Below, one piece after another: positions 11,641 through 15,448 of a DNA stretch of 16,389 bases. The stretch comes from a virus (Duplodnaviria > Heunggongvirae > Uroviricota > Caudoviricetes). Location: positions 121,364-137,752 of the IMG/VR virus record IMGVR_UViG_3300043466_002831; one strand, written 5' to 3'. The translations under genes and the position numbers were made by a program. The first letter of the stretch is position 1, and the number at the start of each line of letters is the position of its first letter. A model generated the notes under the pieces. It ran no database searches and was not told where the DNA came from. It worked only from the letters and a program-made list of their open reading frames with translations.

Positions 11641-11724
11641 ATGAAAAATTTGAATACACTTTTAGCAACTTTAGCACCGACGAATGGCGGAGGGAGAGAT
11701 TTATGCTCACGTGTTCAGATTTAA
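11641..11724 (+). CDS. Putative attenuator leader peptide 1 (27 aa)
   Basis: MKNLNTLLATLAPTNGGGRDLCSRVQI*; GTGTTCAG (11711-18) is complementary to the terminator 5' arm (11757-64). Confidence 0.75.
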   Translation: MKNLNTLLATLAPTNGGGRDLCSRVQI

Positions 11725-11753
11725 TCAAAGGTAATAAGAAGCCAAAATGATTG

Positions 11754-11788
11754 ACCCTGAACACAAAATGTTCGGGGTTTTTTGTTTT
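11754..11788 (+). terminator. Attenuator terminator 1
   Basis: ACCCTGAACA-CAAAA-TGTTCGGGGT followed by a T tract. Confidence 0.9.
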
Positions 11789-11811
11789 ATATGAGTTTTT
11801 TATTATCTTTG
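11781..11811 (+). promoter_or_regulatory. Bacteroidota-type promoter upstream of tRNA-Pro
   Basis: TTTG-N19-TATCTTTG. Confidence 0.8.
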
Positions 11812-11813
11812 TA

Positions 11814-11825
11814 GTGTTCTTTGAC
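11814..11825 (+). promoter_or_regulatory. boxA-like antitermination element
   Basis: GTGTTCTTTGAC, identical at 15571-15582; resembles rrn boxA (TGCTCTTTAACA). Confidence 0.65.
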
Positions 11826-11843
11826 TTATGGGAAAAATATAAT

Positions 11844-11917
11844 CGGGGTGTAGCGTAGCCAGGTATCGCGCTTGGTTTGGGACCAAGAGGTCGTAGGTTC
11901 GAATCCTGCCACCCCGA
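11844..11917 (+). tRNA. tRNA-Pro (TGG)
   Basis: CGGGGTG/CACCCCG acceptor, loop TTTGGGA, TTCGAAT T-loop. Confidence 0.95.
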
Positions 11918-11925
11918 CTGAAAAT

Positions 11926-12009
11926 TGGCACGTCGCTCAGAGGCCGAGAGCATCAGGCTGTTAACCTGACTGGGAAACCACACCGTAGGTTCGAATCCTA
12001 CCGTGTCAG
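11926..12009 (+). tRNA. tRNA-Asn (GTT) with long variable arm
   Basis: TGGCACG/CGTGTCA acceptor, G73, loop CTGTTAA, 15-nt variable region. Confidence 0.85.
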
Positions 12010-12057
12010 CAATTTTTTAGAACTATCAAATATTTATTAATATAAAATGTTAATGTT

Positions 12058-12594
12058 ATGGAACGATATTCTAAAGAAATAATCACTCTACGAAAAGAAG
12101 GGAAAACGTACAAAGAGATTGTAAACTTACTTGGTTGTGCATTGTCAACAGTTTCTTACCATTGTAAGATTCATAAACTTGGAGATAATAACCAAAAAAT
12201 TTCTGAAGATGAAATTAAAAGTTTTCAAATACTTTATGATACTTTAGGTTCAGTAAAGAAGGTTATGAAAAAAACAAATAGGTCATTTGAAACTATTAAA
12301 AAATATGTTAAAACGACTGAAAGACAAAAAACAACAACTAACTCTGAGTCGGTAATTTTGTGGAGAAAAAGAACTAAGATAAAACTTATAGAATATAAGG
12401 GAGGTAGATGTGAAATATGTGGATATGATAAATGTATGAGAGCTTTGAGTTTTCATCATAAAAATCCAAATGAAAAAGATTTTTCTATTTCAGGTAAAAG
12501 TCTTAGTTTTGAAAAATTAAAGGGTGAGGTTGATAAATGTATGTTAGTATGTTCAAATTGTCATTCTGAAATTCATGACGGAATGTACAATTAG
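12058..12594 (+). CDS. HNH homing endonuclease with N-terminal HTH
   Basis: HTH-like TYKEIVNLLGCALSTVSYH; C-terminal CEICGY...FHH...CMLVCSNCHSEIH; inserted between tRNA genes. Confidence 0.9.
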   Translation: MERYSKEIITLRKEGKTYKEIVNLLGCALSTVSYHCKIHKLGDNNQKISEDEIKSFQILYDTLGSVKKVMKKTNRSFETIKKYVKTTERQKTTTNSESVILWRKRTKIKLIEYKGGRCEICGYDKCMRALSFHHKNPNEKDFSISGKSLSFEKLKGEVDKCMLVCSNCHSEIHDGMYN

Positions 12595-12601
12595 GTGTAA
12601 T

Positions 12602-12677
12602 GCGAGAGTAGCTCAGTTGGTAGAGTACAACCTTGCCAAGGTTGGAGTCGCGAGTTCGAATCTCGTTTCTCGCTCCA
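12602..12677 (+). tRNA. tRNA-Gly (GCC), CCA encoded
   Basis: Cloverleaf, loop TTGCCAA. Confidence 0.95.
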
Positions 12678-12679
12678 TT

Positions 12680-12752
12680 GCGGGAGTAGCTCAGTTGGTA
12701 GAGCGATAGCCTTCCAAGCTATAAGTCGCCAGTTCGAACCTGGTTTCCCGCT
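12680..12752 (+). tRNA. tRNA-Gly (TCC)
   Basis: Cloverleaf, loop CTTCCAA. Confidence 0.95.
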
Positions 12753-12754
12753 CA

Positions 12755-13120
12755 ATGAGTAAGAGATACTCAGTAGTTTTGGTACCGTTACTGATAAATG
12801 GTATAGTCGTCGCCTCACACGGCTTTATGGAGGAGGTCGTCGGAAGAAAGGCAAGAACACCATCTTGACCTCCGAGTATATGGTTGACTTTTAAGCGGTA
12901 AGACGCGATGGGTTTTGAATAGAAAAACTATGAATATCTACTCCCTGTAATCTCAGGGTGGGAAATGTGAGAGTAATCGGTCGAGCTACATCTAGCCGTT
13001 AATCACAATATTGGTTTGGAAACAGAGGTAGCCGTGACTTTTCCAACCGAGCCAACCAAGCTTACTATGATACGGGTTAATACCTGTGGATTAGAGGTGA
13101 CGGTCAGGAAAGACTGACAA
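12755..13120 (+). ncRNA. Candidate ~370-nt structured RNA of unknown family
   Basis: No ORF of 60 aa or more on +; GC-richer than coding DNA; at least 9 helices found by eye. Confidence 0.6.
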
Positions 13121-13124
13121 TTTT

Positions 13125-13568: not shown

Positions 13569-13573
13569 AACAG

Positions 13574-13648
13574 GGGGTTACATGTACCAAGGCTTGGCGA
13601 GAAACACTTGCAATGTTTCTGAGGTGGGTTCGATTCCCACTAGCTCCA
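13574..13648 (+). tRNA. tRNA-Ala (TGC), atypical D arm
   Basis: Loop CTTGCAA; G3-U70 wobble and A73 alanine identity elements. Confidence 0.88.
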
Positions 13649-13661
13649 CAAAATAGAAATT

Positions 13662-14009
13662 ATGGCACATCCAAATTTACACGCAAAAAGTTCGGCAAAA
13701 AAATTCGGTGGAAAACCTGAGGATTATATTCATCTACATGAGTGGATGGATGAAACCAAAAGTTGGTTGGGTGATTCATTACATAGAATGTTCCGACACC
13801 ATAGTGAAGGAATCTTTGAAATGGAAAAACGATTTGGTCCTGAATTTACAAATAGCGATGGGAAAATAGTTTATACTCGATATGTTGGAGAACAACATGT
13901 TAAGGAAGATTGTAATAATTATATTCCATGTGCAAAGGAATGGATTACCAATATTTCAGAAAATAAACGACCTCAATGGATGTTGAGGACCATGAACATA
14001 GAAGACTGA
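13662..14009 (+). CDS. DUF6915-like protein
   Basis: MAHP..HAKSS.KKFGG..EDY...H.W.D...HR..RHH.EG...EQHV.ED; family recognised from memory. Confidence 0.75.
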   Translation: MAHPNLHAKSSAKKFGGKPEDYIHLHEWMDETKSWLGDSLHRMFRHHSEGIFEMEKRFGPEFTNSDGKIVYTRYVGEQHVKEDCNNYIPCAKEWITNISENKRPQWMLRTMNIED

Positions 14010-14020
14010 TATTTAATAGT

Positions 14021-14740
14021 ATGAAAGGAATACTAACACCAGAAGAAAAACAATACTTAAGAAGAACTGCAAATTATCTTGGTTCTTTAGGAATGAGAAA
14101 TGGATACATTGATATTGAAATGGAACAAGATGATGACCGAATTAACTCTAAAGACGTTAATTGGCGTCATGTAACTAAATTTGAAAACAACTATAGTGCA
14201 GATATTCCTGAAGGATTGAAACCCATTTTAAAAAAAGTACTTGAATATGTCGATTCATTAGATAATTTAAATAATGATATTATTGATGACATCAGTCACC
14301 AAAGAATTGAAATCAATATTAATGGTGAAGATAAGGAGATTACAGTTAGACATGAACTTTATTATTACAGTCGAGATGATGGTCATATGGTTGAATACGA
14401 TTCTGAAGATGATATAGAAAGATTTAACCGATGGATTGACGAAGATTTAGAAGATGTTGAAGTGCCTTCTGACGGTATTTTAACTTTACCTTACAATGGT
14501 GGTGGTGATTCGGGATATATTGAAAGTTCTTTTGAACCAACTGGTGATGCAGTACCTGCAAGTATTGAAAATTGGTGTTATAGTGAACTTGAAAGTCATT
14601 TTGGTGGTTGGGAAATAAATGAAGGTTCCGATGGGGTTTTCATATTCAATTTCAACGATTCAACTGTTACTTTGGAACACACATACAATACAGAAGAAAA
14701 TCAGACCGATACTCTTTATGAAGAAAGTTTTGACAAGTAA
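14021..14740 (+). CDS. DUF6878-like domain protein
   Basis: Start MKGILT at 14021; C-terminal YNGGGDSG.IE...GWEINEGS.G; family recognised from memory. Confidence 0.7.
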   Translation: MKGILTPEEKQYLRRTANYLGSLGMRNGYIDIEMEQDDDRINSKDVNWRHVTKFENNYSADIPEGLKPILKKVLEYVDSLDNLNNDIIDDISHQRIEININGEDKEITVRHELYYYSRDDGHMVEYDSEDDIERFNRWIDEDLEDVEVPSDGILTLPYNGGGDSGYIESSFEPTGDAVPASIENWCYSELESHFGGWEINEGSDGVFIFNFNDSTVTLEHTYNTEENQTDTLYEESFDK

Positions 14741-14790
14741 GTTGTATCTTTAAGTAAAATCAATTATATTTGTACCATAGTAAAATAAAT

Positions 14791-14878
14791 GCTCGGGTGG
14801 TGGAATAGGTAGACACGCCAGACTTAAAATCTTGTGGGCTTTACGCCCGTGCGGGTTCGATTCCCGCTCCGAGTACCA
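14791..14878 (+). tRNA. tRNA-Leu (TAA), CCA encoded
   Basis: Class II cloverleaf, loop CTTAAAA; GTTG-N20-TATATTTG promoter upstream (14741-14772). Confidence 0.95.
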
Positions 14879-14884
14879 AAATAT

Positions 14885-14958
14885 GTCTTCGTAGCTCAGC
14901 TGGATAGAGCAACTGCCTTCTAAGCAGTAGGTCACAGGTTCGAATCCTGTCGGGGATA
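14885..14958 (+). tRNA. tRNA-Arg (TCT)
   Basis: Cloverleaf, loop CTTCTAA. Confidence 0.95.
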
Positions 14959-14960
14959 CA

Positions 14961-15072
14961 ATATATCATATCTTCAGGTACCCGTACCGCAAACGTAGGG
15001 TTAAGTAAGATACAATTTCGTGTTACATTTATGTAAAAGCGGGGAGTAGAATGCCTGTCTGATGTGATATAT
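14961..15072 (+). ncRNA. Candidate ~112-nt structured RNA
   Basis: 12-bp terminal helix ATATATCATATC/GATGTGATATAT plus CAGGTA/TGCCTG. Confidence 0.45.
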
Positions 15073-15074
15073 AT

Positions 15075-15155
15075 GCCTTGGTGGTGGAATGGTAGACACG
15101 TATGTCTTAGGAACATATGTCTTATGACGTGAGGGTTCGAGTCCCTCCTAGGGTA
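15075..15155 (+). tRNA. tRNA-Leu (TAG)
   Basis: Class II cloverleaf, loop CTTAGGA. Confidence 0.95.
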
Positions 15156-15157
15156 CA

Positions 15158-15313
15158 ATGAAAATAAACATTTATGCGGTTATTATTCTTTTGGTGAATT
15201 TTTCGTTTTCTGTATTTGCAATACACAAATCAAATACATATCAAACACCATCAAAAGATAGTATAAATCAAATAGATTCAGTTTTTTCAATAAAAATATT
15301 TGACAAAAAATAA
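15158..15313 (+). CDS. Small secreted/membrane hypothetical protein (51 aa)
   Basis: MKINIYAVIILLVNFSFSVFA signal-peptide-like N-terminus. Confidence 0.55.
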   Translation: MKINIYAVIILLVNFSFSVFAIHKSNTYQTPSKDSINQIDSVFSIKIFDKK

Positions 15314-15346
15314 ACTTTTACTATACTTCAGTATAATTATAATACA

Positions 15347-15448
15347 ATGAGAACAACAATGGTCCATATTTCGTCGTTTAAGCAACAAGAGATTTGTAGC
15401 TGGTATCGCTATGTGGAAAATTGTAGTTCGGAAAATAAGGTAAAATAA
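15347..15448 (+). CDS. Putative attenuator leader peptide 2 (33 aa)
   Basis: MRTTMVHISSFKQQEICSWYRYVENCSSENKVK*; AGTTCGG (15425-31) is complementary to terminator arm CCGAACT (15478-84); TTGACA-N16-TATACT upstream (15300-15327). Confidence 0.75.
   Translation: MRTTMVHISSFKQQEICSWYRYVENCSSENKVK

Follow-up and report, generated by a model that had tools for sequence, protein, structure and literature searches.

Codon content of short leader reading frames matches the tRNA genes behind them in a phage array: probable ribosome-mediated attenuators

Why should two short open reading frames (ORFs) inside a phage transfer RNA (tRNA) array divide the 20 amino acids between them? The array lies in a 16,389-nucleotide (nt) stretch of viral DNA (Caudoviricetes; positions 121,364 to 137,752 of IMG/VR record IMGVR_UViG_3300043466_002831; herein the window), which is the last 16.4 kilobases (kb) of a single contig of 137,752 base pairs (bp) and 33% G+C; the DNA runs that contain the stretch are lake-water metagenomes. 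The window carries 14 tRNA genes, all on the + strand and mixed with small ORFs and structured spacers, and two leader ORFs, each ahead of a block of these genes. A first-pass annotation of the sequence had proposed that the leaders form a paired sensor of the tRNA pool. The purpose and expression of phage tRNA arrays are debated; the genes have been proposed to compensate for codon usage, to replace host tRNAs that are degraded, or to evade defences that cleave tRNAs. On the anatomy of the leader units, the match between codons and tRNAs, its specificity for reading frame and isoacceptor, its co-variation among relatives, and the alternative RNA pairings found in silico, we conclude that the leaders are probably trp-type ribosome-mediated attenuators that exert feedback control on phage tRNA transcription.

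Leader units and the tRNA blocks behind them

Both leader units have the same arrangement, in which a promoter is followed by a short ORF, a tail that can pair with the 5′ arm of a terminator, and then tRNA genes. The parts of the two units, in window coordinates, are as follows.

11605..11633, + strand: promoter of leader 1, TTGACT-17-TATAAT, with the top promoter-like score in 11000-16389 (11/12) and a position conserved in relatives
11641..11724, + strand: leader ORF 1, 27 codons; the 10 tRNAs between the two leaders can decode every one of codons 3-21
11753..11783, + strand: intrinsic terminator 1, an 11-bp stem (11753-11779) with a T-run
11781..11825, + strand: second predicted promoter, TTTG-N19-TATCTTTG (11781-11811), and boxA-like GTGTTCTTTGAC (11814-11825), between terminator 1 and tRNA-Pro
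11844..15156, + strand: tRNA block 1 (Pro-UGG, Asn-GUU, Gly-GCC, Gly-UCC, Asp-GUC, Thr-UGU, Ala-UGC, Leu-UAA, Arg-UCU, Leu-UAG), with ORFs and structured RNA interspersed
15300..15327, + strand: promoter of leader 2, TTGACA-16-TATACT; relatives have the consensus TTTG-N19-TATCTTTG at the same place
15347..15448, + strand: leader ORF 2, 33 codons, of which codons 5-24 are all decodable by block-2 tRNAs
15473..15511, + strand: intrinsic terminator 2, a 13-bp stem (15473-15505) with T9
15543..15582, + strand: TATCTTTG -7 box (15543-15550) and boxA-like GTGTTCTTTGAC (15571-15582), before tRNA-Val
15600..16125, + strand: start of tRNA block 2 (Val-UAC, Glu-UUC, Phe-GAA), the remainder being lost at the contig end

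The top two promoter-like sites and the top two terminator-like sites in 11000-16389 flank exactly these two ORFs. The leader 1 promoter can also be read as TTTG-N20-TAtaaTTa, a Bacteroidota-like form; it ends 7 nt before the ATG, so that the messenger RNA (mRNA) would be leaderless or nearly so. A Shine-Dalgarno-like motif is present at only 8 of the 164 long ORFs of the genome, and its absence before the leaders is thus normal here. The motif TAnnTTTG is enriched in the genome, most of all upstream of ORFs, and the host of the phage looks, from the sequence, to be of Bacteroidota type.

The amino acid composition of the leaders is as the first-pass annotation had described it. Leader 1 (27 residues) has no H, F, E, W, or Y, and its C, S, V, Q, and I are confined to residues 22-27; leader 2 (33 residues) has no L, A, P, G, or D, and its N is confined to residues 25 and 30. 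The proximal zones, codons 2-20 of leader 1 (K, N, L, T, A, P, G, R, D) and codons 2-22 of leader 2 (R, T, M, V, H, I, S, F, K, Q, E, C, W, Y), together contain all 20 amino acids and overlap in R, T, and K. In random draws of 19 and 21 residues at phage amino acid frequencies, a union of 20 with an overlap of three or fewer has P = 1.6e-5. The split is real in the sequence, but it follows from the partition of the array and is no aim in itself: a near-complete tRNA set is cut into two transcription blocks here. In relatives the set is cut into three, with a separate Leu/Arg leader, or partitioned otherwise, and the leaders follow. The overlap has an explanation too: AGA-ACA-ACA in leader 2 and AAA-AAT-TTG-AAT-ACA in leader 1 make up the first RNA segment of each leader, the partner of its tail, and for Arg there are two isoacceptors, one per block (AGA versus CGC).

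Stronger than the split is a match at the codon level between each leader and its own block. All 10 block-1 tRNAs have a cognate codon in leader 1, which contains a run of 19 codons decodable by these 10 tRNAs (P = 1e-6). Leader 2 covers 14 of 15 block-2 tRNAs in the window's own version and 15 of 15 in relatives with the whole block, and 26-27 of its 32 codons are decodable by the complete block (P ≤ 5e-7; 2e6 draws). Among 1338 small ORFs counted over all six frames of the 137.7-kb contig, the top rank goes to leader 1 for block 1 and to leader 2 for block 2.

Leaders and tRNA blocks among related phages

Relatives were retrieved through the repeated promoter/boxA motif and a 239-residue protein embedded in the array, yielding 79 loci from IMG/VR and metagenomes (cited below as L001 and so on), several of which are duplicates of one another. 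In the GenBank phage collection, near and distant DNA searches and tblastn with the array-embedded protein gave tRNA-sized matches or nothing. The comparisons below use 33 distinct leader/block pairs from about 75 related loci, in which the anchor protein is 37-96% identical. The Leu/Arg leader escaped automatic finders that asked for exact tail/3′-arm identity or for a 7-bp antiterminator within the ORF; the leader set was therefore curated by eye, which is a possible source of bias. Leader ORF length and position are conserved over the related loci.

Close relatives, with leader 2 sequences 92-97% identical to that of the window, carry the block-2 genes that lie beyond the contig end. Downstream of their leader 2 are Val, Glu, Phe, His, Ser-UGA, Ile-GAU, Lys, Cys, Trp, Tyr, Gln, Arg-ACG, Met, (Ile-UAU), and Ser-GCU; the full block is present in L002/L006, L049, and L054. 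The His, Ser, Lys, Gln, Cys, Trp, Tyr, Met/Ile, and Arg(NCG) tRNAs that the first-pass annotation had predicted 3′ of the window, which itself ends first, are all carried by these relatives. It had also expected few or no Leu, Ala, Pro, Gly, or Asp tRNAs there: Leu, Ala, Gly, and Asp are indeed missing, but ARAGORN makes a lone, odd 92-nt Pro(CGG) call in L001.

Family-wide, the leader zone offers a cognate codon for 282 of 308 block tRNAs (92%; odds ratio 27, Fisher P = 5e-79). When blocks are permuted among leaders, P is <1e-5 (within type 1, 2e-5; within type 2, <1e-5); these values ignore shared ancestry, and discrete rearrangement events, described below, consequently weigh more. The match is specific to the reading frame. 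Codons that the leader's own block can decode make up 76% of the zone in the ATG frame, and 91% of block tRNAs are represented there; the corresponding values are 35% and 56% in the +1 frame and 28% and 41% in the +2 frame.

It is also specific to the isoacceptor. The Arg codon is AGA in 24 of 24 cases with Arg-UCU in the block and CGY in 11 of 11 cases with Arg-ACG in the block (a structural AGA at codon 2 aside); leaders whose block is without Arg-ACG contain no CGN codons. Where Ser-GCU is the sole Ser tRNA, Ser is encoded by AGT alone. Codon 8 of leader 2 is ATA in four distinct genomes with a contiguous tRNA-Ile(UAU) and ATT in two genomes in which this tRNA is absent or detached (6/6); in the window it is ATT, which would predict a block 2 without a contiguous tRNA-Ile(UAU). 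The leader 1 ORF is kept in all relatives, with substitutions confined to the amino acid set of its block. Substitutions between close relatives are chemically radical yet stay within that set, as at codon 8 (L/R/T) and codons 16 and 18 (G/D) of leader 1 and codon 31 (K/V/M) of leader 2.

Rearranged arrays have correspondingly altered leaders. Many relatives possess a third leader before Leu-UAA, Arg-UCU, and Leu-UAG, with 22 codons that include nine for Leu (TTA, CTT, CTA/CTG) and four AGA; its antiterminator strand lies just past the stop codon. In these three-leader genomes leader 1 has one Leu and no Arg codons, versus four to five Leu and one to two Arg codons where the Leu and Arg genes sit in block 1. 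The L039 lineage has gained Asn and Gly-UCC in block 2 and lost Val, Phe, Met, Arg-ACG, and Ser-UGA; its leader has gained N and G and lost V, F, M, and CGY, and encodes Ser by AGT only. In L033 and L034, Tyr and Met have relocated to the first block, and the first-block leader has gained Tyr codons. L036, whose anchor protein is 43% identical, has a different gene order and partition: one of its leaders covers 11 of 11 tRNAs (Ser, Gln, Cys, Val, Tyr, Phe, Asn, Ile, His, Arg-ACG, Pro), and its second leader covers 8 of 9 (Glu, Ala, Asp, Gly, Arg-UCU, Leu, Thr, Leu, Met). Leader composition in relatives is thus non-random and tracks the arrays, and neither this check nor that on the downstream tRNAs refutes the proposal of the first-pass annotation.

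A tRNA-Ala gene was not found, by cmscan among other means, in several relatives that keep Ala codons in the leader (L001, L049, L016); these cases were counted as mismatches. Mini-ORFs rich in I and K, followed by a terminator, stand before the last tRNAs (Ile-UAU or Ile-GAU, and Ser-GCU) in some relatives and were considered as a fourth leader type, which we rejected since their codons do not match those tRNAs. They are conserved and fall outside the leader rule:

L007, 15048-15125: I/K-rich mini-ORF
L034, 12862-12939: I/K-rich mini-ORF
L033, 7899-7949: I/K-rich mini-ORF
L021, 15903-16013: I/K-rich mini-ORF

RNA pairings, read-through and rival explanations

The RNA of each leader contains segments with two possible partners. 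Numbering them as in classical attenuators, with the terminator as 3:4, the segments are as follows.

11646..11657, + strand: attenuator 1, segment 1, AAATTTGAATAC, which pairs with the tail (11711-11722) in the minimum free energy (MFE) fold of the full transcript when the ribosome is absent
11711..11718, + strand: attenuator 1, segment 2, antiterminator strand GTGTTCAG (codons 24-26), an 8-bp perfect complement of 11757-11764
11757-11764, + strand: attenuator 1, segment 3, CTGAACAC, comprising the 5′ arm of terminator 1 and the first loop bases
15351..15360, + strand: attenuator 2, segment 1, GAACAACAAT (codons 2-5), which pairs with 15420-15429
15425..15431, + strand: attenuator 2, segment 2, AGTTCGG (codons 27-29), the antiterminator strand against 15478-15484 (CCGAACT)

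In folds of full free transcripts, helix 1:2 (first codons with tail) and the terminator both form. In both attenuators, the 2:3 pairing forms in folds cut before the 3′ arm with the ribosome stalled at codons 6-18; for 10 of 10 units from five genome types, 2:3 is the MFE structure of a nascent transcript that lacks the 3′ arm and carries a ribosome stalled in this zone. RNAalifold, applied to 13 homologues of leader 2, finds both the terminator and helix 1:2; compensatory changes occur at two pairs of this helix and at five in its extension. The 7-bp leader 2 antiterminator is pairable in 91 of 91 cells of the 13 aligned homologues, and slid controls score 32-70 of 130 over 10 columns. Tail and 5′ arm co-vary, reading GTTCGG/CCGAAC in 20 units and GTTCAG/CTGAAC in 16, with a G-U pair in one; two terminators are unrelated in sequence, and their tails are likewise unrelated yet matching. 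Helix 1:2 also accounts for the off-list codons with which the leaders begin (AGA-ACA-ACA and AAA-AAT-TTG-AAT-ACA).

The window therefore holds, for each unit, a promoter and short ORF, matched codons, an intrinsic terminator, a 2:3 strand at the end of the ORF (in silico), and a 1:2 hairpin. Downstream genes free of a promoter of their own are not seen in the window and are seen in the L008, L012, L016, and L021 types. Together with the codon statistics, frame specificity, and repeated co-variation, the conserved 1:2, 2:3, and 3:4 pairings support the proposal of paired tRNA-pool sensors, each tied to the tRNAs behind it.

For such a sensor we infer the following sequence of events, in which translation, stalling, and read-through are the added steps. 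Transcription would start just upstream of the ATG, and the 27- or 33-codon ORF would be translated while the polymerase proceeds. The first codons would serve as segment 1; the middle ∼19-22 codons would act as a checklist that names nearly every block tRNA by one to three cognate codons; and the last codons would serve as segment 2, which can pair either with segment 1 or with the terminator's 5′ arm (segment 3). If all checklist codons are read fast, the ribosome at the tail or stop codon would mask segment 2, the 3:4 terminator would form, and transcription would stop. If a charged tRNA is scarce, the ribosome would stall in the checklist and occupy segment 1, leaving 2:3 to pair, so that no terminator forms and the polymerase reads through to the tRNAs. 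With no ribosome, 1:2 and 3:4 would form and transcription would terminate. The outcome would be negative feedback, with a tRNA block made or boosted when the supply of those species from host and phage is low.

Several observations weigh against attenuation. Equilibrium folds of complete transcripts always give the terminator, whether or not ribosome footprints are masked, and the antiterminators are short (7-8 bp) versus terminators of 11-13 bp; as the terminator always wins at equilibrium, the switch must be kinetic, and it shows up in folds of the nascent transcript only. Terminator 1 is followed by a host-type promoter consensus (11781-11811) and terminator 2 by a -7 box (15543-15550), in each case ahead of the first tRNA, and to judge from these sites tRNA transcription in the window may be largely independent of the leaders. 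In 26 of 308 cases a block tRNA has no leader codon; conversely, some codons have no block tRNA (H, D, Q, and G in the Leu/Arg leader; F and M in L024), and one leader is common to L030 and L039, whose block contents differ. The co-variation statistics do not account for shared ancestry. Finally, most tRNA species are represented by one codon each where classical attenuators use runs, which makes sensitivity to mild shortage uncertain; a list of this kind would be most responsive to the severe depletion of a single tRNA species or to an overall slowdown.

In one alternative, the leaders are self-contained units that always terminate, producing a short mRNA or small RNA, and only the promoters past the terminators drive the tRNAs; the codon match would then have a role apart from read-through, for instance as a translated timer or as a decoy that engages ribosomes or reports on them and has no effect on tRNA transcription. 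The good host-type promoter after each terminator in the window and close relatives is what this account would require, as are strong terminators that equilibrium folds always form. In L008, L012, L016, L021, L070, and L078, however, the leader-1 terminator ends 10-13 nt before tRNA-Pro. This leaves no room for a promoter, so that the tRNAs of these six related genome types are reachable only through the terminator, and we regard this spacing as the strongest point for attenuation that the sequences offer. Constitutive termination would, moreover, leave the conserved, co-varying complementarity between tail and 5′ arm without a purpose. A third objection comes from the boxA-like element, GTTCTTTGA(C/A), found after most terminators. 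Its position in the window is 3′ of the TATCTTTG box, whereas in L016-type units (L016, about 12355-12375) it lies upstream of that box and would thus be present in read-through transcripts only. Taken together, we consider constitutive termination unlikely. For the window itself, where a promoter follows each terminator, attenuation would mean that the leaders modulate tRNA transcription and are not its sole gate, the attenuator probably supplementing a basal promoter according to demand.

Transcription data do not bear on the choice. In contigs of four metatranscriptome runs the tRNAs and the structured RNAs between them are covered and the leaders are next to uncovered, which is uninformative either way. 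One contig (X15 record 1; 11655-11830, depth 3.2) spans terminator 1 and another (X16 record 13; 15523-15969, depth 47) starts upstream of the second promoter box; both are compatible with read-through but could stem from DNA carry-over or relatives and were not counted as evidence.

A sensor of a different kind would dispense with the ribosome: leader triplets would pair with anticodons, in the manner of a T-box specifier, and stabilize the antiterminator. Like a T-box, the leaders lie upstream of translation-apparatus genes and offer a terminator/antiterminator choice, and they contain a long conserved hairpin with compensatory changes. However, a scan of the whole window against Rfam at the gathering score returned tRNAs only, with neither a T-box nor any other family; the signal resides in one frame, which starts at a conserved ATG and has its stop codon beside the antiterminator strand; and a string of ∼20 contiguous in-frame codons is unlike the anticodon reading of known tRNA-binding RNAs. 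We therefore reject this reading as very improbable.

Conserved ORF length and position at about 75 loci might instead point to functional small peptides, with the likeness to the tRNA set incidental or secondary. Peptide function fits poorly with radical substitutions (L/R/T, G/D, K/V/M) that stay within the block's tRNA set, with synonymous codon choice that tracks the isoacceptor present, and with paralogous leaders that lack peptide similarity outside their RNA-constrained ends; even the conserved tail motif, ..SSD.., is what the RNA segment GTTCGG spells in frame. We give this explanation hardly any weight. Chance, finally, is rejected as practically negligible: small ORFs are plentiful in this AT-rich intergenic DNA (84 of at least 20 residues in 5.4 kb) and the zone boundaries were set post hoc, but two chance mini-ORFs would not combine the P values of 1e-6 and ≤5e-7, the first rank of each leader among 1338, frame specificity, and co-variation across relatives, which argue for selection as the first-pass annotation had held.

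If the leaders are attenuators, possible triggers would be tRNA decay or cleavage in the host during infection, or heavy demand from phage genes. A more specific role is conceivable, which we advance tentatively: the leaders could be isoacceptor-resolved shortage sensors that replace tRNAs lost by the host, for example to anticodon nucleases or general tRNA decay, and so form an inducible counter-defence and homeostasis circuit.

Array context and comparison with known systems

The contig ends at window position 16389, 264 nt after tRNA-Phe and inside the tRNA array. Its start lies inside a gene whose end is RuvC-like by eye; the two contig ends do not join in frame, so the genome is incomplete or lacks the junction. 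The ORF immediately ahead of the array has a cREC_REC domain (10636-11073, +; E = 8e-21), defined in Pfam as a cyclic-phosphate processing receiver domain. We take this ORF as a pointer to RNA-end repair, which would fit a phage facing tRNA cleavage. A ClpP protease is encoded further upstream (8298-9002, −; E = 6e-55). A tmRNA gene is present in the close relative L049, ∼4 kb past the tRNA array (20242-20638, −; Rfam RF00023, 80 bits).

Within the array, tRNA-Asn(GUU) (11926-12010) is 85 nt long with a long variable arm, and its counterpart in relatives is 73 nt (L001, 8552-8624). Between tRNA-Asn and tRNA-Gly lies a 178-residue ORF (12058-12594) with weak N-terminal helix-turn-helix matches and, by eye, Cys/His motifs of HNH/zinc-ribbon type; it is probably a homing-endonuclease-like insertion, and L002 and L004 have no counterpart at the same place. 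The spacer between tRNA-Gly(UCC) and tRNA-Asp (12757-13100) is structured, non-coding, and without an Rfam match. It reaches a depth of about 50-200 in contigs of the four metatranscriptome runs, as in X16 record 10 (12727-13094) and X19 record 25 (12763-13128), with adjacent coding stretches at about 0-3, and looks like a stable expressed RNA of a kind that Rfam does not assign. Another structured RNA without an Rfam family match, preceded by a TATCTTTG box, lies between tRNA-Glu and tRNA-Phe (15800-15970) and is represented in RNA-library contigs (X19 record 27, 15830-15927, depth 342; X16 record 13). Past tRNA-Phe, 16121-16339 contains a ∼130-nt tRNA-like element with a canonical T arm and acceptor end and an expanded core, which is included in RNA-library contig X16 record 15. 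ARAGORN makes no call for it in the window and calls its L001 counterpart (12714-12805) a 92-nt “tRNA-Pro(CGG)”. By its sequence it could be an intron-bearing or decoy tRNA.

Multivalent leader attenuators are well known from enterobacteria: ilvL of ilvGMEDA carries Ile, Leu, and Val codons and thrL carries Thr and Ile codons, alongside trpL, hisL, leuL, and pheL. The phage leaders resemble the ilvL and thrL type in having a promoter, a short leader ORF with many regulatory codons, four RNA segments that form 1:2, 2:3, or 3:4, a stop codon by segment 2, a terminator, and proposed control by ribosome speed for several amino acids at once. They differ in what they control and in how they list it. 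The bacterial leaders govern biosynthetic enzymes through runs of codons for one to three amino acids, whereas the phage leaders would govern the tRNAs themselves, with 8-15 tRNA species each listed once to three times by isoacceptor-specific codons; they are viral, and occur in two or three copies per array, each tuned to its own block. The pheST attenuator of Escherichia coli, with its pheM leader, likewise couples the supply of a charged tRNA through a leader peptide to a gene of the translation apparatus, but senses Phe alone and controls a synthetase rather than tRNA genes.

T-box riboswitches share with the phage leaders the sensing of tRNA status and a terminator/antiterminator choice upstream of translation-related genes; unlike them, they bind one uncharged tRNA directly, without a ribosome, through conserved Stem I and T-box motifs, none of which was detected here, and the phage signal lies in a reading frame. 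A boxA-like GTGTTCTTTGAC after each terminator, at the head of the tRNA block, recalls the rrn-type boxA leaders of rRNA and tRNA operons. boxA acts via Nus factors without sensing tRNA, and the putative phage boxA would merely supplement the attenuator. The polycysteine short ORFs of mycobacteria, on leaderless mRNAs, are Cys-responsive attenuators whose codon content ties downstream expression to how much of one amino acid or tRNA is available (bioRxiv 10.1101/834739); they concern a single amino acid and bacterial biosynthetic operons, without tRNA genes.

Full-text literature searching found no published description of leader-peptide control of tRNA genes. If the proposed mechanism is right, the phage gauges the decoding speed of the listed codons and answers by making the matching tRNAs; this would be the first known attenuator controlling tRNA genes and, as up to 15 tRNA species are listed, would exceed every known leader in multivalency. 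It would also constitute a natural, compact sensor of tRNA availability at the level of isoacceptors, usable as a reporter, and the sequence rule that leader content equals block content can annotate operon boundaries in viral tRNA arrays. Against these known systems, we rate the mechanism as known and the target (tRNA genes), the degree of multivalency, and the isoacceptor resolution as new.

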